DNA of 58,833 bases, taken from the IMG/VR virus record IMGVR_UViG_3300028361_000031, positions 1 to 58,833 of that record. One strand, given 5' to 3'. Positions 17,327 to 30,702 of the stretch are shown here, piece after piece. The notes under the pieces are model-generated. The model had not been told where the DNA came from, did no database searches, and saw only the letters and a list, made by a program, of their open reading frames with translations. This DNA comes from a virus (Duplodnaviria > Caudoviricetes). Numbering within the stretch: the first letter of the stretch is position 1; each line of letters begins with the position of its first letter. The position numbers and the translations under genes are program-made.

Positions 17327-20300
17327 TTGTACAAAAATATTCATTATTCACGTCGTAAAAACATGATTTATGTTTGGGACGACGTTTTGGGATTGAAAAC
17401 CTTTAAATATATCAAGTATGCATATCAACCCGCAATAAATGGTGAATATAGATCAATTTATGGTGATAAGTTAACAAAGACATATCAATATAACCATGAT
17501 GATGCAGGATTGTTCGAATCCGATGTTCCCGAAACTACTCGTACTTTAATTGATATGTATTCTGAATCGGATGATGTATCGAACGGACACACCATACTTA
17601 CTTATGATATTGAGTGTGAGATGATTAGTGGGTTACCAGATCCATTAGAGGCAACTAACGAACTAACATCCATAGCGTTACATAGTTCATACAATGACCA
17701 ATATTGGGTACTCGTAATGGACAAGGATGGGTCCATGGTAGAACGGAAAACTGATAAAGCAATAGTTATTCCATTCCAACGGGAAGAAGATATGTTATTG
17801 AAATATTTGGAATTATACGAGCAGATCGCTCCAACCATCGTTACAGGTTGGAATTGCATTCCCACTAATTCTAATATTTGGAAAAAGCATGAAATTGTTA
17901 AACTAAATACTATATTAAAGAATGACGTATTATATGATTCTAAATGTACGGAATTATATCCAGTTTCAGAAAAAATAATAAATACAATATCTCTTAAAAA
18001 TGGTGAGTGTCTTGATGCTTCAAGTGAACATAAATTTTTAGTTAGATATAAACATAAATCTAAATACACAAATTTACAGTCGTCATCCAATACATATACC
18101 GAATCATACCTAAGCACATCAGATATAAGAGAAAAATCTGATATGTATGATATATTTTTCCAGGTGAATGTAAATGATAATACTAATAATGATATAGAAA
18201 TTTCTGATGATTGTCTTTATGCAATGGGATTAATATATACTGACGGTTCTATTAGCAAAACAGACAAATGTGTGTCTATTTATAATAATGATTATAATTT
18301 AATATGTGAAGTTAAAAAATACCTTGACACACAAAAACGTGTATTTCGTACTTCCAATTTTAGGGAATTGCCACCCAAAACAACATATAGATTGCGAACT
18401 TGGATGACAGAATACAATGAATTAACTAAGTATATAAACTTTATTTGGAACCCTGACATAAAGTGTAAACAACTAAATGTAAATTTATTATCAAAGTTAT
18501 CCAAGCGTCAGTTCTGGATTTTTATGAGTGGGTGTATTGATGGTGACGGTCATGTTTTTAAGGATGGAAGTCGAGGAGTTAATTTGTGCAATTATAACGG
18601 AGATATTCATAATTTTGTAGAATTAATTCGTTGGAACGGTGCATTTTCATACAGCAATGATAATCAATTAACCATTCCGATGAATTCTAATAACTTATGG
18701 CTAAAAAAATATTTAATCTTAAAAATAAAATATAAAAAAGATGGACTCCAATCCCATAATACTTATGATATTAAGTATTCTAGATCAAAGACTATTAAAT
18801 GGCGGTATGATTCCATTAGTAAATCATACTTTGTTGCACTAAAATCAATTGAGGTTTCAGACAAATCATCTGAAATGATGGATATAAGTTGTACGGGTGG
18901 TCAATTTAAGTATCGTGGGATTAGTACTCATAATTGTGATAATTTCGATACACCTATGTTGTACAATCGAATAAAACGATTATTAGGGGAAACCACTGCA
19001 AACAGATTATCACCGATAGGGGAGTGCTATTATTCACCTAATCGTAAACGATTTTCAATTGCAGGGGTTTCATATTTAGATTACATTACTCTATACAAAA
19101 ACTATAATTTTGGAGAACTACCAAATTACAGACTAGATACAGTTGCTAAGATAGAGTTGGGTAGGGGTAAAATAGAATATGATGGAAATTTGGATGAATT
19201 ATTTAAGGATGATATTGAAAAATTCATAGAATATAACTTAGTCGATGTAGAACTGGTCGTGGATTTTGAAAAGAAATTACAATTTATAGAATTATGTAGG
19301 GGTATATGTCATGCGGGTCATGTTCCTTACGAAGATTTCCCTTGGTCATCAAAATATTTAGAAGGTGCATTGTTGACTTATTTACGTAGAGGAAATTTAG
19401 TTGCACCGAATAAACCAAATAGAGTTACGTTACGCATTAAATCGGGTAGTAAGGGTGATAAGAATATTTATATGGATAAACTTCCACAAAATACACCAAC
19501 ATCAGGAAATATAAAAATATCAAAATCCCCATCATCACATTTTCAACTTGAATTTTCGGATGTTGATTTTAAAACGAATTCATTTATATTAAAAGAACCA
19601 CTACCAACTACATTATTATCGGAGTGGAAGTTGAAAATAGATTTTGCTGGAGCATATGTGAAACCACCAATAGTAGGAAAATATGATTGGATCTTCGATT
19701 TGGATTTAACATCACTATATCCAAGTATAATAATGAGTTTGAATATTAGTCCTGAAACAAAAATTGCTAAAATAAAAGACTGGGATGCTAATAAGTTTTT
19801 AAACGGTGATGTTGATGAATATAGTATTGATGGTAATATAATTACTAAGGAAAATTTAAGAAAATATCTTGATGAAAGTAAATATACAGTTGCATCCAAT
19901 GGAATGTTGTATCAAACTGATATAGTAGGTTGTATTCCCGGGATATTGGATTTATGGTTTAATAAAAGGGTAGAATACAACACCGAAAAGAAAAAATGGG
20001 GTAAACTTGGTGACAAAGATAAATATGATTTCTATGATAAACGACAGTTGGTACAGAAGATTTTACTTAACTCCCTTTATGGTTGTTTAGGGTTGGAAAT
20101 CTTTAGATTCTTTGATATTCAAAATGCGGAGGCAGTAACGACTACTGGTATTTTCGTAATTAAATCTACGGCCGACATGACAAATATCAAATATAATAGA
20201 GAATTGGGCGGTCAACCTTATATTTTTAAATTAGAAAATGGAGAAACTATACAGAGATGGCCGAATTCAGATGTAAGTGTAAACCGTGAAGGTATAATTC

Positions 20301-20350
20301 AAATCATCAAGGCAAAGGATTTAGTTGAATTGGATGATATAATTATTTAA
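17327..20350 (+). CDS. polB: family B DNA polymerase part 1 (exonuclease + motifs A,B) with contiguous intein
   Basis: YDIEC, TGWN, YRLD, YN..DV, FAGAYV, DLTSLYPS, KILLNSLYG; lacks motif C. Confidence 0.92.
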   Translation: MYKNIHYSRRKNMIYVWDDVLGLKTFKYIKYAYQPAINGEYRSIYGDKLTKTYQYNHDDAGLFESDVPETTRTLIDMYSESDDVSNGHTILTYDIECEMISGLPDPLEATNELTSIALHSSYNDQYWVLVMDKDGSMVERKTDKAIVIPFQREEDMLLKYLELYEQIAPTIVTGWNCIPTNSNIWKKHEIVKLNTILKNDVLYDSKCTELYPVSEKIINTISLKNGECLDASSEHKFLVRYKHKSKYTNLQSSSNTYTESYLSTSDIREKSDMYDIFFQVNVNDNTNNDIEISDDCLYAMGLIYTDGSISKTDKCVSIYNNDYNLICEVKKYLDTQKRVFRTSNFRELPPKTTYRLRTWMTEYNELTKYINFIWNPDIKCKQLNVNLLSKLSKRQFWIFMSGCIDGDGHVFKDGSRGVNLCNYNGDIHNFVELIRWNGAFSYSNDNQLTIPMNSNNLWLKKYLILKIKYKKDGLQSHNTYDIKYSRSKTIKWRYDSISKSYFVALKSIEVSDKSSEMMDISCTGGQFKYRGISTHNCDNFDTPMLYNRIKRLLGETTANRLSPIGECYYSPNRKRFSIAGVSYLDYITLYKNYNFGELPNYRLDTVAKIELGRGKIEYDGNLDELFKDDIEKFIEYNLVDVELVVDFEKKLQFIELCRGICHAGHVPYEDFPWSSKYLEGALLTYLRRGNLVAPNKPNRVTLRIKSGSKGDKNIYMDKLPQNTPTSGNIKISKSPSSHFQLEFSDVDFKTNSFILKEPLPTTLLSEWKLKIDFAGAYVKPPIVGKYDWIFDLDLTSLYPSIIMSLNISPETKIAKIKDWDANKFLNGDVDEYSIDGNIITKENLRKYLDESKYTVASNGMLYQTDIVGCIPGILDLWFNKRVEYNTEKKKWGKLGDKDKYDFYDKRQLVQKILLNSLYGCLGLEIFRFFDIQNAEAVTTTGIFVIKSTADMTNIKYNRELGGQPYIFKLENGETIQRWPNSDVSVNREGIIQIIKAKDLVELDDIII
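17855..18934 (+). mobile_element. contiguous intein with LAGLIDADG endonuclease (360 aa) in PolB ExoII
   Basis: TGWN|CIPTNS...ASSEHKF...MGLIYTDG...SGCIDGDG...ISTHN|CDNFD. Confidence 0.9.
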
Positions 20351-20363
20351 ACAAAAAACAAAT

Positions 20364-20447
20364 ATGAAAATAACAAAAATTACTCGTGGGAACATCAGTA
20401 TAGATGAAAGAGGACAGTGCGACTCTAACATTTATATTGATTTCTAA
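20364..20447 (+). CDS. polB: PolB part 2 start (27 codons, ends ...SNIYIDF*), absent from ORF track
   Basis: MKITKITRGNISIDERGQCDSNIYIDF; same frame as 20478 ORF; supplies YID of the YxDTDS motif. Confidence 0.75.
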   Translation: MKITKITRGNISIDERGQCDSNIYIDF

Positions 20448-20477
20448 TCCCCGTTAGTTAATTCTTTCGGGGATAAA

Positions 20478-21338
20478 ATGTACACAGATTCAGTATTTTT
20501 TAGTGCAACACCATTGATGGATAATAGGTTGCCTAATTGGAAAAATGAAACACAGGAAATAATAACAGGATATGTAAACGATATTGCAACCGAAGTCCAA
20601 GATTATCTAAATAATTTTTATGATGTCCTTGCACCTAAAATATTTAATATCGATAAAGATAAACATAGATTTGAGATAAAGAAAGAATATGTTGCAAAAT
20701 CTGGAATTTGGATTGCAAAAAAGAGATATGCACAGTGGATAATATCAGATAATGGGTTACCAGTTGATAGATTGGATGTAAAGGGATTGGATGTCAAACG
20801 TAGTTCATTTCCAACTGCGTTCAAGGGAATCATGTCAGAGGTTCTAATTTCAATACTAAAGGGTGAAACTGAACAAGATTTATCAGACAAAGTTTTGAAA
20901 TTCAAAAAATCATTACCATCCATAAAAGTCAAATCCATATCTAAAAACTCGGCAGTTAAAGAGTTATCAAAGTATGTATCGAGTGGTGATAGACATCTAT
21001 TTCAATTTAAAAAAGGAACACCCGCCCACGTAAAGGCCGGGATTGCATATAATGATTTACTAATACATTATAAATGTGATTTTAAATATGCTCCACTTTC
21101 GAACGGATCAAAAATTAAATGGATATATTTACGGAATAATCCATTAGGATTGGATGCACTTGGATTTACAGGATATCAGGATCCACCTGAAATTTTGGAA
21201 TTATTGGAAACATACGCACATCATGATAAGATGTTCGAACGGGATTTAGAGGGCAAGCTCCAAGATTTTTGGGATTCGTTGGGTTGGGGAAAAGTAATAG
21301 ATCAAAAGAAATCAGCAGAAAAGTTTTTCAGTTTTTAG
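20478..21338 (+). CDS. polB: family B DNA polymerase C-terminal part (TDS, palm/thumb)
   Basis: TDSVFF, AKKRYA, VKGLDVKRSS, GTPAHVKA, KIKWIYL. Confidence 0.9.
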   Translation: MYTDSVFFSATPLMDNRLPNWKNETQEIITGYVNDIATEVQDYLNNFYDVLAPKIFNIDKDKHRFEIKKEYVAKSGIWIAKKRYAQWIISDNGLPVDRLDVKGLDVKRSSFPTAFKGIMSEVLISILKGETEQDLSDKVLKFKKSLPSIKVKSISKNSAVKELSKYVSSGDRHLFQFKKGTPAHVKAGIAYNDLLIHYKCDFKYAPLSNGSKIKWIYLRNNPLGLDALGFTGYQDPPEILELLETYAHHDKMFERDLEGKLQDFWDSLGWGKVIDQKKSAEKFFSF

Positions 21339-21531: not shown

Positions 21532-21900
21532 ATGAAAGAAACAAGTTATGCAGATATGGTTACTGCATTAGTAAAACCAGGAAAAGACATTCTAACATCA
21601 TTGACATCTGAACAATGTGATATGTTACATATGGGAATTGGAATATCAGGAGAATCAGGGGAACTTTTGGACGCAATAAAAAAATCGACCATTTATCAAA
21701 AACCTATTGATAGGGAAAATATCATAGAAGAATTGGGTGATTTAGAATTTTATATGGAGGGTTTACGACAAAATCTCGGAATATCACGTGAAGAAACTAT
21801 TAAACAAAATATGGATAAATTATTAACAGGAGAAAAGGCTAGATATAAAGTTGGAAAATACACAGATCAACAAGCACAAACTCGTCAAGATAAAGAATAA
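21532..21900 (+). CDS. MazG-like NTP pyrophosphohydrolase
   Basis: GISGESGELLDAIKK...EELGDLEFY...N..KL..RY. Confidence 0.85.
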   Translation: MKETSYADMVTALVKPGKDILTSLTSEQCDMLHMGIGISGESGELLDAIKKSTIYQKPIDRENIIEELGDLEFYMEGLRQNLGISREETIKQNMDKLLTGEKARYKVGKYTDQQAQTRQDKE

Positions 21901-21903
21901 ATT

Positions 21904-22674
21904 ATGAAACTATACGGTGTATCCGGTAAGATAAACTCGGGCAAGGATGAAATCGCGAAAATGATTCAATATTTGAATTATTGCAAATATAATAATGTAA
22001 ACGAATTATCCTATGATGATTTTGAAACTTTATATGATACCGTGCGAACGGATATATCACGTACTAAAATAGAAAAGTTCGGTAGTAAGTTAAAGGATAT
22101 TGTTTGTATCTTATTAGGTTGTACTAGAGAACAATTGGAAGATAGGGAATTTAAAGAAAAAGAATTAGGAGAAGAATGGTGGTATTATGGTTTTGGAGAA
22201 AACAAAATTAATGGAGTTGTTAAACTTGATTATAATAGTCATAAAGAAAACGTCACTGAAAATGGAGTAGATAAAAATGAACAATATATAGTTAAACTTA
22301 CACCTAGACTTTTACTTCAATTAATTGGAACTGAATGTGGCCGTGAAATTATACACCCCAATATTTGGGTAACCTCGACTCTATCTAGTTATAAGGAACA
22401 ACTTAGGTGGTTAGATGTGGATAACTACAATATAGAAAAACAACCAAATTGGGTAATTTCCGATGTAAGATTTCCAAATGAAGTAAGTAGTATCGAAAAT
22501 TTAAATGGAATTGTAATTCGTGTTATCAGAGGAGACAATATAATCACGGAAAAAGAACATGAATCAGAAACTGCGTTAGATTCTCATATATTTGAATATA
22601 TAATTGAAAATAATGGTACAAAGGCTGAATTATTAGAAAAAGTTAAAAAAATAATTGAAAATAAATCCAAATAA
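21904..22674 (+). CDS. deoxynucleoside monophosphate kinase
   Basis: GKINSGKD, PRLLLQLIGTE.GR, ISDVRFPNE, HESETALD. Confidence 0.88.
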   Translation: MKLYGVSGKINSGKDEIAKMIQYLNYCKYNNVNELSYDDFETLYDTVRTDISRTKIEKFGSKLKDIVCILLGCTREQLEDREFKEKELGEEWWYYGFGENKINGVVKLDYNSHKENVTENGVDKNEQYIVKLTPRLLLQLIGTECGREIIHPNIWVTSTLSSYKEQLRWLDVDNYNIEKQPNWVISDVRFPNEVSSIENLNGIVIRVIRGDNIITEKEHESETALDSHIFEYIIENNGTKAELLEKVKKIIENKSK

Positions 22675-24614: not shown

Positions 24615-25775
24615 ATGAAATTTTGGGATACTGGTATTGATACTTCTATATTCGATTTCGAACGGGAAAAAAAAACCCTAATCGATAATCTTGAATACCT
24701 GAATTCTATGGGTGTTGAGGAACAGACCTTATATAAGAAATATGTAGAGTTACAGACACCATCGAGTATTAATAGTAGATCTGATTTTGCTAGATATTAT
24801 GATTGGCAATGGTCACCAACCGATATAAACAATAAAGAACTTACGATTAAGGAGATAAGTGCGTTGGATCCTTATATCGAAATCGTAGAACGGGATGATC
24901 AGTTGGTGAAATGGACTTCGGTACGTAAGATGATACATACTATGAGTTGGACTGCTAACCCAGGTCGTAACGTGAAGATTTTTGTAATCGATAGAACATC
25001 GGGTAAACTTTTGGGATTGATTTCCCTTGCTTCAGATGTAACGTCCATCGGTTGTAGGGATAGGTATATCGGTTGGGGTAAGGAAGATAAGTTTGAAAAT
25101 GGTAAACTTAACAGTACCACTATCGCTTCAACGATTGTATGTACCCAACCTTTAGGATATAATTTTCTAGGTGGAAAATTGATAGCGATGATGTGTACTT
25201 CACCTGCGGTAAGGGAACATTGGAAAGAAAAATATGATGATATCCTTATAGGTGTAACCACTACGTCATTGTACGGCATACATTCACAATATAACGGAAT
25301 ACCACATTTTAAGACAGTTGGTGAAACCACGGGTCAAACTTCACAGAAACCTGATGATTTCATTTATAAACCATGGCATGATTGGTTGAAGCAAAATTAT
25401 TATGAGGAATGGCATAAAGCTGTTAGTGCTACAGGCCCTAAGCAAAATATATTGAATCGTATCTATAAACATATAGATATGTCAAGTAAACAATTCCAAC
25501 ATGGGTTCAGACGAGGTGTATATTTTGCTCAAATGTACGATAATGGGAATGATTTTCTATGTTCCAAAATTGATGAAAGTGAATTGGTAATGAAACAGAA
25601 AATGGTAGATGGTGTTCCATATATCAATAATTGGTGGAAACGTCAGGCTACCAAACGGTATGTAAAATTACACGAACAGGGTAGATTGAAACCTGATTGT
25701 CTATATTATCACAATGCAGTTGGCTGTAGCTGGGAAGAAATGAAGAATAAATATTTAAAAGAAGTTGGACGTTAA
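24615..25775 (+). CDS. DUF4338/DruA-like protein, copy 1
   Basis: NPGRN..IFV.D..SGKLLG.I.LASD...RD.YIGW...TQPLGYNFLGGKL...TTSLYG.HSQYNG. Confidence 0.7.
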   Translation: MKFWDTGIDTSIFDFEREKKTLIDNLEYLNSMGVEEQTLYKKYVELQTPSSINSRSDFARYYDWQWSPTDINNKELTIKEISALDPYIEIVERDDQLVKWTSVRKMIHTMSWTANPGRNVKIFVIDRTSGKLLGLISLASDVTSIGCRDRYIGWGKEDKFENGKLNSTTIASTIVCTQPLGYNFLGGKLIAMMCTSPAVREHWKEKYDDILIGVTTTSLYGIHSQYNGIPHFKTVGETTGQTSQKPDDFIYKPWHDWLKQNYYEEWHKAVSATGPKQNILNRIYKHIDMSSKQFQHGFRRGVYFAQMYDNGNDFLCSKIDESELVMKQKMVDGVPYINNWWKRQATKRYVKLHEQGRLKPDCLYYHNAVGCSWEEMKNKYLKEVGR

Positions 25776-25776
25776 T

Positions 25777-26988
25777 ATGGAGTTTTGGGATGCAGAAGAT
25801 GATAGGGTAGATTTTAATTTTGATACCGAAAAAAAGTACTTGATGGAAAACATGGAGTATCTTATGAATATGTCCGTTGAGGAGCAGACCTTATATAAAA
25901 AGTGGGTGGAATTACAAGAACCCAATGTTATAAAGGAAAAGTATTCTTCGTACGCTGGATTATACGATTGGCAATGGAAACCGACTGATATCTATAATAA
26001 GGAACAAACTATCAAAGAGATAGAAGAACTTGAACCCGAAGTATGGATAGTAAAGGATGATTCCGAGGCCACACGTTGGGTTAAATCTCGGAAGATGATA
26101 CACACAATGAGTTGGACTGCTAATCCAGGTCGTAATATGAAAGTATATGTTACCGATAAAAAATCCCATAAGTTATTAGGACAGATTTCGATTGCATCCG
26201 ATGTGACTTCATTAGGGGTACGGGATAAATATATCGGTTGGTCAAAGGATAATAAATTTAAGGATGGTAAATTGAACCATACAGCTATCGCATCAACGAT
26301 AGTTTGTACGCAACCATTGGGATATAACTTTTTAGGTGGGAAATTAATTGCTATGATGGCCACAACAGCTCCAATACGTGATTTTTGGGAAGAAAAGTAC
26401 GGACAGAAATTAATCGCTCTTGGTACAACTTCTTTATATGGAATTCACTCGCAGTATAATGGAATTCCACATTATAAAACTCTTGGTGAATCCAAAGGAC
26501 AGGTATCCGTAAAACCAGATGATTCATTTTATGATCCATGGCATCAATGGTTGAAGGAAAACCGAAGTGAGTGGTATCAAAAAAATATAACCGATGAACG
26601 ATTACGAAATGGTGAATCTATGGGAATCGCTTCTGGACCTGTGAATGGTATCAAGCAAAAAATTCTTGGTAAGATATTCAAGGAAATTAATATAAACCCA
26701 AAGATATACAATCATGGGTTTAAACGCGGTATCTATTTAGCTCAAATGTATGATAACGGTAATGAATTTTTACGTTCCGAGATAGATGAATCAGAATTAA
26801 AATTGAAAAAGAAATTCGATGATAATGTTACATATATAACAAATTGGTGGAAACCAAAAGCGATTAGACGATATACCAAGTTGTTCGATGAAAATCGTAT
26901 CAAACCAGAATGTTTGTTTTACTTAGATGCTATCGGAACTTCTTGGGAAATGGTAAAAGATAAATACTTAAATGAAGTTGGACGTTAA
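25777..26988 (+). CDS. DUF4338/DruA-like protein, copy 2 (tandem paralog)
   Basis: Collinear with copy 1 end to end (M.FWD...EVGR); ATG 25777. Confidence 0.7.
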   Translation: MEFWDAEDDRVDFNFDTEKKYLMENMEYLMNMSVEEQTLYKKWVELQEPNVIKEKYSSYAGLYDWQWKPTDIYNKEQTIKEIEELEPEVWIVKDDSEATRWVKSRKMIHTMSWTANPGRNMKVYVTDKKSHKLLGQISIASDVTSLGVRDKYIGWSKDNKFKDGKLNHTAIASTIVCTQPLGYNFLGGKLIAMMATTAPIRDFWEEKYGQKLIALGTTSLYGIHSQYNGIPHYKTLGESKGQVSVKPDDSFYDPWHQWLKENRSEWYQKNITDERLRNGESMGIASGPVNGIKQKILGKIFKEININPKIYNHGFKRGIYLAQMYDNGNEFLRSEIDESELKLKKKFDDNVTYITNWWKPKAIRRYTKLFDENRIKPECLFYLDAIGTSWEMVKDKYLNEVGR

Positions 26989-28634: not shown

Positions 28635-29279
28635 ATGATTATATACAAAGTAACAAATACTATAAGCAATAAAGTTTATATAGGACAAACAATTCAGACA
28701 CTACCACAAAGACAATCGGTACATCGAAAAACAGCAAAGAATGGATCCGAAACTAATTTCCATAGAGCATTGAGAAAATACTCAAAACGCAATTGGAAAT
28801 GGGAAGTATTGGAAACTGTAAAATCGGCTGAATTACTTAATGAACGAGAGATATTTCATATTAGAGAATATGATGCATATAAGTCAGGATATAATATGAC
28901 CGAAGGTGGTGATGGGGGATTGACATATAAAAAGGGAACTGAATTATACGAACGTATCAAACATAAACTTGGTAAATGGGAGAATGGAAATCCGGGTGCA
29001 ACACCAATTGCAATAAAAAAGAGATTAGAAACTTTCAAATCCGTAAATTGGCCAAGCGGTGAAACTCACGGTAACTATGGAACGCATCCTGAAAAACCAT
29101 CTTTACGTGGCAGTGGTAATCCAATGTATGGTAAGACACCTACAAATGCTCGTAGAGTAGAGGTTGATGGAATTGTATATAAAAGTGTTGCTGATGCAGC
29201 TCGGAAACTGGATACCAATAATAATACGATTAGGAGAAGGTGCTTAAATGAAGAATTAACAAATTATAAATATAAATAG
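28635..29279 (+). CDS. GIY-YIG homing endonuclease
   Basis: IIYKVTN...VYIGQT...R...E...GYNMTEGG; NPMYGK; NUMOD1 tail. Confidence 0.88.
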   Translation: MIIYKVTNTISNKVYIGQTIQTLPQRQSVHRKTAKNGSETNFHRALRKYSKRNWKWEVLETVKSAELLNEREIFHIREYDAYKSGYNMTEGGDGGLTYKKGTELYERIKHKLGKWENGNPGATPIAIKKRLETFKSVNWPSGETHGNYGTHPEKPSLRGSGNPMYGKTPTNARRVEVDGIVYKSVADAARKLDTNNNTIRRRCLNEELTNYKYK

Positions 29280-29282
29280 AAT

Positions 29283-29933
29283 ATGGGGTTTTTTGAAGAA
29301 AAGAAATCAGTAAAAAAAGTAAGTAATTCACTTTGGTGTGAACAGTATAGACCAACAAATTTAGAAGAATATGTTGGTAATACACATCTAAAGGAAAAGA
29401 TTCAGGGGTATTTGGAATCGGGTGATATTCCACATTTATTGTTATTTGGTAAAGCTGGCACCGGCAAAACTACATTAGCTCGATTGATAGTAAACACAAT
29501 AGAATGTGATCACATAATCATAAATGCATCCGATGAAAACAACGTGGACACGGTAAGAACCAAGGTCAAGGGATTTGCATCAACCGTGGGGTTTAAGGAT
29601 AAGAAAGTTATTATATTGGATGAGTGTCTAGATGAAAATACATTGGTTTCGGTTATGCGGAATGGTAATGAAGTTAAACTTCCAATTAAAAGTTTAGATG
29701 ATAAAAATGATTTAGTAAAATCGTGGAATGTGGATAAGAGTCAAATCCAATGGCGACCTTTTTATCATTGGAATGTGGGTGTTAGGGATGTCTATGAAAT
29801 TGAACTTGAAAATGGAGAAATAGTGGTATGTACCGAAGAACACAAATGGTATGTATTGGATAAGAATGATAATCTGATAGTAGTAAAAACTAAAGATTTA
29901 CATAAATATAATTATATTTTATCCCCACAATAG
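29283..29933 (+). CDS. clamp loader AAA+ subunit N-part + IntN (29625-29930)
   Basis: WCEQYRP, GKAGTGKTT, INASDE, IILDE|CLDENT...CTEEHKW. Confidence 0.92.
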   Translation: MGFFEEKKSVKKVSNSLWCEQYRPTNLEEYVGNTHLKEKIQGYLESGDIPHLLLFGKAGTGKTTLARLIVNTIECDHIIINASDENNVDTVRTKVKGFASTVGFKDKKVIILDECLDENTLVSVMRNGNEVKLPIKSLDDKNDLVKSWNVDKSQIQWRPFYHWNVGVRDVYEIELENGEIVVCTEEHKWYVLDKNDNLIVVKTKDLHKYNYILSPQ

Positions 29934-29961: not shown

Positions 29962-30702
29962 ATGATGGAGTTAAAAAAAATTAAAATCAATTCAATAAAT
30001 AAGTTAACCGAACAACGTAGCGTCTACGATATATCGGTTGAAGGTAATCATAATTTTTTCATTGGAAAAACGGAAACACTAACACACAATTGTGACTATT
30101 TAACCCCAAATGCTCAAGCTATAATGCGTAATCTAATGGAAACGTTCTCACATCACTGTAGGTTCATCCTAACGTGTAATTACGTGGAAAAGGTTATACC
30201 ACCCATTCAATCCCGATGTCAGACGTTCCAGATAGTACCACCGACCAAGAAGGATGTAGCAGTTCAAGTCGCGAGGATACTTGGGTTGGAGAGTATTACA
30301 TACGAACCGCAAAATATTGTAACAATAGTAGATTCAGCTTATCCGGATATTCGTAAGATTATCAACACTGCTCAAATGAATTCTAGTAAAGGTACACTAA
30401 AGTTGGATAAAACTAATATCATAGATTCGGATATACGGACCAAGATTGTAGAAATATTACAATCTAAGGATGATAAACGAAACAAATATATGAATTCAAG
30501 GAAGGCTATTGCTGATTCACGGATGCAGGATTTTACCGAACTGTACACGTATTTATATGAGAAAGTAGATGATTATGCGGATGGAAATACATCATCGGTA
30601 ATCTTGTTATTAGCAGAAGGACAATATAAGGATGCAATGGTCGTGGATCGCGAAATCGTTTTTATGGCCACTTTGGTAAATATAATCGGAGTTGTATCGT
30701 AA
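29962..30702 (+). CDS. IntC (29962-30090) + clamp loader C-part
   Basis: VYDISVEGNHNFF...LTHN|CDYLTPNAQ..RFILTCNY..IQSRC..DIRKIIN. Confidence 0.92.
   Translation: MMELKKIKINSINKLTEQRSVYDISVEGNHNFFIGKTETLTHNCDYLTPNAQAIMRNLMETFSHHCRFILTCNYVEKVIPPIQSRCQTFQIVPPTKKDVAVQVARILGLESITYEPQNIVTIVDSAYPDIRKIINTAQMNSSKGTLKLDKTNIIDSDIRTKIVEILQSKDDKRNKYMNSRKAIADSRMQDFTELYTYLYEKVDDYADGNTSSVILLLAEGQYKDAMVVDREIVFMATLVNIIGVVS

Follow-up and report, generated by a model that had tools for sequence, protein, structure and literature searches.

The window analysed here is the whole stretch of a virus contig from lake-water metagenomes (58,833 nucleotides, 58.8 kb; 32% G+C; about 30% complete; IMG/VR record IMGVR_UViG_3300028361_000031), and on its plus strand a T4-type family B DNA polymerase (PolB, gp43-like) is spread over three open reading frames (ORFs). 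Here, I propose as the probable explanation that the gene has been interrupted by a mobile fractured-gene cassette bearing a splicing-dead half-intein as a docking module, a second break having turned the enzyme into a three-chain polymerase. In its strongest form, which I put forward with more doubt than confidence, the dead half-intein would be a working and still-spreading docking module, and the three-chain polymerase would be held by a 27-residue staple that both binds the tail of the first chain and gives the enzyme its first motif C strand.

The first frame, ORF-A (17327..20350, +; 1007 aa), encodes the N-terminal part of PolB, namely the N-terminal and exonuclease domains (PF03104, 5.5e-14; PF00136, 8.5e-22), motif A (DLDLTSLYPS at aa 791) and motif B (KILLNSLYG at aa 911), and terminates in a tail, ...KYNRELGGQPYIFKLENGETIQRWPNSDVSVNREGIIQIIKAKDLVELDDIII, followed by TAA at 20348-20350. 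The tail proper, from G961 to I1007 plus the stop (20207..20350, +; net charge -3), is read below as what is left, in splicing-dead form, of the block B region (N2 lobe) of a split intein. Between its stop and the next ATG lies an A-rich spacer of 13 nt (20351..20363, +), with a +1 shift of frame relative to ORF-A. The mini-ORF that begins there (20364..20447, +; 27 codons) reads MKITKITRGNISIDERGQCDSNIYIDF before its stop and consists of a basic head (20364-20420, +; net +3 over the first 10 residues) and the first strand of motif C, DSNIYID (20421-20441, +). Its start context resembles that of other gene starts of the window, and it is 67% identical to the start of a relative (P0126), with no frameshift. 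The remainder of the palm and the thumb are encoded by ORF-C (20478..21338, +; 286 aa; PF00136, 6.3e-8), which begins MY-TDSVFF... and to which the PolB of Microcystis phage Mel-JY01 is 45% identical. Exonuclease domain and motifs A, B and C are all present, in agreement with a T4-type family B polymerase. The insertion extends, as the original prediction had it, from 20207 to 20420, that is from the Gly961 codon after KYNREL through the Cys19 codon before DSNIYID. The same prediction counted two polymerase chains, having overlooked a second, in-frame insert of 42 nt (20442..20483, +) laid out as TTC TAA-hairpin-ATAAA ATG TAC at the YID/TDS boundary; because this insert cuts motif C after YID, the polymerase lies in three ORFs rather than two.

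The junction is neither a chance product nor an assembly error. The stretch is identical in contigs of two sequencing runs, at depths of 23 and 11 (these runs may be its source), and a third lake-water run, from a separate study, spans 19903-20371 including the stop and the start with one change only (C>T at 20209), its coverage excluding 20376-20511. No RNA run is listed among the sequencing runs that contain the stretch. It may be objected that a nick in the catalytic DTD hairpin is perhaps incompatible with activity and that, because the contig is only about 30% complete, another polymerase is possible; both points weigh against a functional three-chain enzyme, and, together with the count of three interruptions in one gene, one of them within that hairpin, they would suit a pseudogene decaying after repeated mobile-element hits while another enzyme replicates the genome. 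Yet all three ORFs are intact and retain, also in motifs A, B and C, the residues found invariant when 43 N-parts and 30 C-parts are aligned, the mini-ORF aligns without frameshift to a relative's head, each break has a clean stop and a clean start, and the same sequence was assembled in both runs. I therefore regard decay as very improbable.

That the junction is an insertion follows from comparison with unsplit relatives. The closest contig relative, L003 (65% identical in the C-part), has one uninterrupted ORF across the junction, ...KYNKELGTPDLDSNIYIDTDSVFFSA..., and reads KYNKELGTPDLDSNIYIDTDSVFF where the window has tail and head; the PolB of Mel-JY01 has the same unsplit layout. Set against these, the window carries two inserts, namely tail, stop, start and head between ELG and DSNIYID, and the 42 nt between YID and TDS. 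Among the 80 IMG/VR loci nearest to another relative, P0037, 75 are unsplit; the other five comprise a single split locus, a single 1-nt frameshift and three truncated loci. When 5.8 billion proteins were searched with the C-terminal 108 residues of ORF-A, 52 of the 120 matches listed are N-parts terminating in a tail of this type (most 574-598 aa; consensus KYNKELGG.P.I.ELEDGS....YPNS.V.V.R.G....I.AKEL.E.DDFI) and 56 are unsplit proteins of ~838 aa that have no tail. On the other side of the junction, 36 of the 120 listed relatives of ORF-C begin MK[IV]K[KS]I, then 11-20 variable residues, then D.NIYIDTDS; the usual split form therefore has two chains, the second of which carries head and motif C in one.

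The tail sequence has been kept in PolB lineages whose identity to the N-part of the window is 53-72%, and it recurs in the uncultured megaphage LR756508.1 (484 kb; PolB 41-43% identical), where the same tail, ...YLVMRDGMKMKVKGKELQEEDELVIED and a stop, is separated from a head reading MKTKKIKNIP... by 3 kb that hold three ORFs. In one relative, P0039 (899 aa), the whole domain of ~65 residues lies in-line within one chain. Searched by tblastn in 50,697 phage records, the 56-aa tail matched three places only, at chance level (E 2-3), and a search for short head-only proteins (30-170 aa) with residues 1-40 of P0126 returned a single candidate, an 82-aa fragment.

The intein origin of the tail is indicated by sequence and by fold. 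A profile hidden Markov model of 33 tails, run against 177,635 PDB sequences, gave 15 matches at E<=10, six of them inteins, and the top three are all inteins: the Pab PolII intein (2lcj, E 4.6e-4), the Aes123 PolB1 split intein (9hth, E 0.0023; residues 85-118, VMVKRDGKIIDVKPTEMKQTDRV) and PI-PkoII (2cw7, E 0.052), with KlbA and two more PolII inteins further down (E 0.15-0.58). All intein matches fall at intein residues ~76-127 and set the W/YPNS of the tails on the block B TxxH (TVDH/TADH). The AF2 model of the tail has four strands (predicted local distance difference test, pLDDT, 82.9), and inteins are its best Foldseek matches, with root-mean-square deviations (rmsd) of 1.1-1.4 A over 40-44 columns (6rpp: probability 0.99, rmsd 1.3 A, 42 columns; 5bkh: template-modelling (TM) score by query 0.71, rmsd 1.1 A, 44 columns). 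A VIA search of 48,161 chains, independent of Foldseek, placed 38 at Z>=2, with 5bkh on top (Z 5.9, rmsd 3.0, 51 aligned) and ranks 1-22 occupied exclusively by inteins or hedgehog HINT domains; the aligned ranges, 46-96 in Npu DnaE, 38-86 in gp41-1 and 54-106 in NrdJ-1, are the N2 lobe in each case. For residues 541-612 of the in-line form P0039, 10 of 10 structural neighbours of the ESM Atlas model bear a HINT domain (TM by query 0.66-0.72 over 56-66 residues), and the structural alignment extends through the segment equivalent to the head.

Sequence profile and fold thus point, at equivalent positions, to homology with the HINT superfamily, and they support the derivation of the tail from the N2 lobe of a HINT/intein domain. 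The original prediction of an intein-derived element, which proposed a comparison with the HINT fold, is borne out to this extent: the tail profile matches solved inteins first, the highest ranks of the tail model are all HINT proteins, and the model fits the N2 lobe of HINT proteins only. Several results nonetheless count against such an origin, or narrow its scope. The Pfam and NCBIfam intein models give the tail no match, even at E<=10; the fold scores are modest (best Z 5.9, when a VIA Z under 8 can reflect a common arrangement) and no Foldseek match reaches E<=0.001; for the in-line domain of P0039, AF2 with the tails as alignment gave a poor model (pLDDT 56.9, its head part under 50); and the head has no detectable likeness to the C-terminal intein half (IntC), a profile of 16 heads run against the PDB having retrieved only the motif C region of RB69-type polymerases and two RING2 chains (E 1.3-2.1), no intein among them. 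Modest Z values being insufficient alone, they were therefore weighed jointly with the profile E-value and the constant N2 position. As to the head, it may be the counterpart of IntC. In Pfam, NCBIfam and PHROGs, searched at E<=10 or 0.01, the tail belongs to no family.

The replication module of the window offers a genuine split intein for comparison. The clamp loader (RFC small subunit/gp44-like; 29283-29933 and 29962-30702) is cut at ILDE|C, the intein reading ILDE|CLDEN...CTEEH... up to a stop, then MMELKKIKI...SVYDISVEGNHNF...THN|CDYL, and it scores above the cut-offs (TIGR01445, 32.7 bits against 24.5; TIGR01443, 29.8 against 15.6). Its halves are separated by a 28-nt spacer, with no endonuclease between them; a GIY-YIG/I-TevI-type endonuclease gene (28635-29279) lies directly upstream of the N-half. 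The likeness that the original prediction had seen between the two loci holds, the first clamp-loader ORF (29283..29933) ending ...ELENGEIVVCTEEHKWYVLDKNDNLIVVKTKDLHKYNYILSPQ before its stop and the second (29962..30702) beginning MMELKKIKINS...

What the PolB junction does not share with the clamp loader are the splice residues. At E<=10, PF14890, TIGR01445 and TIGR01443 give no match to the PolB junction, while the clamp-loader intein of the same window passes. A complete HINT fold is lacking, for there are only about 46 + 19 residues; the tail aligns to intein residues ~69-126 alone, and intein residues 1-70, with the Cys1 block and block A, have no counterpart in the tail/head family. The N-junction is KYN[KR]ELG|G in most of the 33 aligned tails, conserved C, S and T being absent there. 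At the position of block B the window has WPNS and most relatives YPN[ST], as against TVDH/TADH in 2lcj and 9hth. The heads consist of MKIKKI, a variable linker and D.NIYID, lacking both HN and a +1 Cys/Ser/Thr, and the in-line domain of P0039, which has V at position 1 and ends ...GGQL|DHN, likewise has no splice residues. Because the element possesses neither the Cys1 block nor the block B His nor the terminal HN, splicing is not expected, and these features support the view that the junction element is incapable of it, which agrees, as far as sequence can tell, with the non-splicing junction originally predicted (no N-terminal nucleophile, W/YPNS in place of the block B TxxH, neither HN nor a +1 nucleophile). 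A working split intein of an unknown minimal class, joining the halves covalently, could be defended on the grounds that the element is located where IntN ends and IntC begins, that the tail is homologous to real PolB inteins, and that cysteine-less and atypically split inteins have been described. Such an intein would have to operate although Cys, Ser and Thr are conserved neither at ELG|G nor before D.NIYID, with about half a HINT domain lacking block A, the block B His and HN, and in a family whose in-line member has V at position 1 and L|D at the end; I consider it scarcely credible.

The patchy distribution of the insertion points to mobility. Sixty-one N-parts, trimmed at KYNKEL, were placed on a quick maximum-likelihood tree, in which split genes stand among unsplit ones; 14 changes of state are needed, well-supported branches compel at least 10 of these, and the clustering of the split label does not exceed that of shuffled labels. 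The split P0012 and the unsplit P0083 are identical at 541 of 546 positions and diverge directly after KELG, and further pairs of a split and an unsplit gene have identities of 94.8% and 91.3%. The nesting of P0039 among split forms (support 99) makes the in-line form look secondary. In some relatives the space between tail and head is occupied: in L015 an ORF (4834-5097) with a NUMOD3 match (4.7e-6) and weak PHROG homing-endonuclease matches comes after the tail stop, and the ORF that runs up to the head ATG in L100 (3612-3953, -) and L101 (1-525) matches no known family. The ends of the latter two, ...VLEYDEPHHF... and ...VLEFDERYHY..., are reminiscent of Vsr-like (EDxHD) homing endonucleases, a resemblance confirmed by no tool. 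In the window a free-standing endonuclease gene is absent between the halves, where the 13-nt spacer is all that lies. Taken together, these sequences suggest that a mobile 'fractured gene' cassette in the PolB of T4-like phages has left the junction behind as its scar. The clasp element of the original prediction stands within this picture; the patchy, mobile cassette and the endonuclease-like ORF that relatives carry between the halves had escaped it.

What function, if any, would be left to the two stubs? The cassette would be bounded by the region that follows motif B (KYNKELG) on one side and by motif C (DxNIYIDTDS) on the other, and would supply an acidic tail of ~46 residues to the N-part and a short basic head (MKIKKI...) to the C-part, the head occupying the position where the IntC of a split intein begins. 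For split inteins cut at the endonuclease site, PMC11923092 describes an electrostatic capture between a disordered, charged N2 lobe and IntC, after which the split intein collapses into a beta-rich fold. Tail and head would most likely still carry out the first step of this assembly: their opposite charges would capture each other, the stubs would fold into one small beta lobe, and the folded lobe would dock the polymerase chains non-covalently, rebuilding the palm. In the window, the second break would cause the head and the first motif C strand to be made as a separate 27-residue peptide, so that the enzyme would be assembled from three chains. As in split inteins, the charges are segregated, with a mean of -4.0 for the tails (n=33, range -7 to -1) and of +3.2 for the first 10 residues of the heads (n=16). 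Because an N2 lobe and a stub at the IntC position remain, with fitting charges, tail and head are read as a docking pair that would tie the chains to each other and allow the palm to close.

Residues 770-1007 of ORF-A, the mini-ORF and ORF-C were co-folded in three runs, with 3 controls. The score of 0.48 (runs 0.48, 0.81 and 0.38; best of the 3 controls 0.10) lends weak support to the assembly, the runs agreeing in at least 57% of contacts with a partner pLDDT of at least 62. Of 157 solved complexes 116 pass the mark applied, as do 2 of 215 mismatched pairs, and scores of 0.60 or under comprise 18 of the 157 solved complexes and both of the passing mismatches; the present case differs from that calibration in having a partner of under 30 residues and custom alignments, and the placement of the motif C strand could be a memory of solved PolB structures. 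The control in which the tail chain and the mini-ORF were kept and ORF-C was replaced bears directly on the docking role, and to its disadvantage. Because this control fell to 0.10, the score does not single out a tail-head contact, and it seems to rest, in these models, on the motif C strand rather than on a clasp; the tail-head contact, and with it the part of the original prediction in which the element holds the chains together, stays at the level of inference.

The same control is what would be expected if tail and head were inert leftovers of the cassette, the polymerase halves associating through their own large palm interface and the stubs persisting through youth or homing. Split and unsplit alleles can be 99% identical, and for this reason many cassette insertions are recent; moreover, in the account of the Aeromonas phage Aeh1 enzyme NrdA given in PMC3045599, comparable tails are not needed for heterodimer formation. 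The same account has these tails essential for activity, however, and inert stubs would hardly explain why the tail is conserved across lineages with 53-72% identity to the N-part of the window, why it is also kept in a megaphage whose halves lie 3 kb apart, or why the segregation of charges is family-wide. An inert tail and head are, on balance, unlikely, and a docking module is the explanation retained here.

The second break is at once the more unusual and the less well-attested part of the layout. L003 reads DSNIYIDTDSVFF where the window has the 42-nt insert, which is unique within the window. It occupies the same D|T position as a full intein of the megaphage LR756508.1 (...VYTD|S...VVHN|TDS), the Aes123 intein site, DTD|S, being two residues further downstream. 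The insert contains a G+C-rich RNA hairpin of 7 bp, AUCCCCG-N14-CGGGGAU (20447..20474, +); the fold of 20425-20500 has -17.1 kcal/mol (z -3.27, 0 of 200 shuffles as good), and no terminator-like T run is seen at the hairpin. TTC-TAA stands directly before the hairpin, and the ATG of ORF-C is in frame, with an A-rich leader typical of this phage. On this evidence, the most likely and simplest reading of the insert would be termination and restart, producing a free 27-residue peptide and a C-part that begins at MY-TDS.

The mini-ORF and ORF-C share a frame, and a single chain spanning both, through ribosome bypass or read-through of the TAA, would reduce the polymerase to two chains. In the T4 mobA/gene 60 cassette, 50 nt are bypassed in translation, matched GGA codons flanking the gap, with one clean product; there too, a homing-endonuclease cassette splits a replication gene, and a stop and a hairpin insert stand nearby in a conserved motif. 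The window has the TTC at 20442-20444 immediately before TAA and the stable hairpin, a matching TTC at 20466-20468 and matching GAT codons at 20439, 20472 and 20487, and relatives carry 2-3 residue inserts at the same spot (YIDTQIDS, YIDTQFTDS). Unlike in gene 60, no matched codon pair restores YIDTDS: a hop from TTC to TTC yields YID-FGDKMY-TDS, with six additional residues, one from GAT to GAT yields YID-KMY-TDS, with three, or loses TD, and read-through of TAA adds 14. Furthermore, the insert closes with an in-frame ATG and an A-rich leader, a restart that a hop would not need and that gene 60 lacks. I hold a single C-terminal chain to be improbable, and keep to termination and restart.

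Some observations concern motif C of the relatives. In-frame inserts of 2-3 residues occur in P0216 (YIDTQIDS) and P0224 (YIDTQFTDS), and because of them the motif C loop may tolerate extra residues. The C-parts P0239 and P0235 start MTDSVFF, their putative tailed N-part partners, paired by an equal listed length of the longest contig, being P0031 (with P0239) and P0041 (with P0235), and the N-termini of P0158/P0189 and P0212/P0218/P0234 resemble frame-shifted readings of D.NIYIDT; by inference back from the proteins, these odd N-termini may be read as 7-nt inserts, and motif C seems, in these sequences, to be a hot spot for small insertions. A sequence-pattern search for M-TDSVFF gave only chance matches in unrelated genes, and no relative with the 42-nt insert; scans for the DNA of such C-parts yielded a distant locus among viral contigs (with P0218) and six distant loci in one metagenome. 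Two further elements of the insert region were considered and dropped. The outer helix of the RNA fold, ATATTGA/TCAGTAT, is coding sequence that is not kept in L003 and is probably due to chance. A GGGGA before the ORF-C ATG, considered as a hairpin-occluded Shine-Dalgarno sequence mediating translational coupling, was rejected, such a motif being found at only 4 of the 62 gene starts of the window; because Shine-Dalgarno-like motifs are this scarce and leaders are A-rich, a host with Shine-Dalgarno-independent initiation is suggested.

The closest published parallel to the cassette is given by fractured genes, in which split inteins have a free-standing homing endonuclease gene between their halves (Dassa et al. 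2009, PMC2677866). Such loci share with the PolB junction a phage replication gene in two ORFs, the first closing and the second opening with intein-type sequence, an endonuclease ORF that is present in some members (here in L015, and as the ORF of no known family in L100 and L101) and lost in others, as at the gp41-7 locus, and hairpins adjoining the restart. They differ in that the inteins of that paper are complete and predicted to splice, whereas here there is only an N2 lobe and a short head with every splice residue gone; among the hosts named there for fractured genes, in the text available, PolB of this type is absent. A natural split intein in a T4-type PolB is likewise known, Aes123 PolB1 (PDB 9HTH; Humberg et al. 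2025, PMC11923092), a cysteine-less, full and active intein at DTD|SVY in motif C of T4-like Aeromonas phages. Unlike it, the element of the window lies 7 residues upstream of YID (ELG|...|DSNIYID) and appears, from its sequence, to be splicing-incompetent.

For an essential enzyme fragmented by a mobile element, the precedent is NrdA-a/NrdA-b of Aeromonas phage Aeh1 (Crona et al. 2010, PMC3045599): C- and N-terminal tails derived from the mobE insertion are required for an active enzyme, with neither RNA nor protein splicing. Those tails have no intein origin stated in the abstract, unlike the HINT-derived tail of the window, for which a comparable role is proposed here. In Aeromonas phages 25 and 44RR, gene 43 exists as 43A/43B, the products of which co-purify and are active (Petrov et al. 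2006, via PMC2988022), and the cistrons are separated by a seg endonuclease gene or by a short untranslated sequence (PMC2988022). A T4-type PolB in separate cistrons is thus common to these phages and the window, and the passage of PMC2988022 on 43A/43B makes no mention of intein-like tails.

The 43A/43B split, active PolB split inteins, fractured genes and element-derived assembly tails are therefore already published. What appears to be new, in that it was not found in print, is a conserved one-lobe intein remnant, devoid of splice residues and travelling on a patchy cassette, as a docking module; the literature searched, which omits many subscription journals, yielded no account of a split phage PolB with an intein-derived clasp that does not splice. 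More unusual but less secure is the three-ORF polymerase, in which the nick separates the two motif C aspartates.

Inteins are thought to persist through clean self-excision. A widespread, conserved and patchily distributed family with no splicing chemistry would represent a second route to tolerance, in which the element brings its own protein-protein clasp, and would link the split inteins of fractured genes with the tails of Aeh1 NrdA. It would also separate the 'capture' half of split-intein assembly from the splicing chemistry, and would provide protein engineering with a candidate tool, a minimal heterodimerising pair of natural origin (cysteine-free, about 46 + 10-19 residues). The three-ORF polymerase, in turn, raises the question of how much cutting a replicative active site withstands.

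Another mobile element resides in the same gene. A canonical intein of 360 aa with a LAGLIDADG endonuclease lies in the exonuclease domain of ORF-A (17855..18934, +; aa 177-536; GWN|C...THN|C), its matches to LAGLIDADG_3 (1.9e-4) and Intein_splicing (4.5e-3) both being below the Pfam cut-offs; L003, which does not have this intein, reads GWNIDFFDTP there. It is a third, independent mobile element in the PolB gene, separate from the junction. The polymerase is flanked by S-AdoMet lyase-like, Mom-family (9e-47), MazG-like and dNMP-kinase genes (14785-15393, 16307-17107, 21532-21900 and 21904-22674), which hint at DNA modification and anti-restriction functions. Finally, the tandem ORFs 24615-25775 and 25765-26988 look paralogous, the sequence of the second closely resembling that of the first; the first matches the Druantia DruA family (PF14236, 8e-24), an unexpected occupant of a phage replication module.

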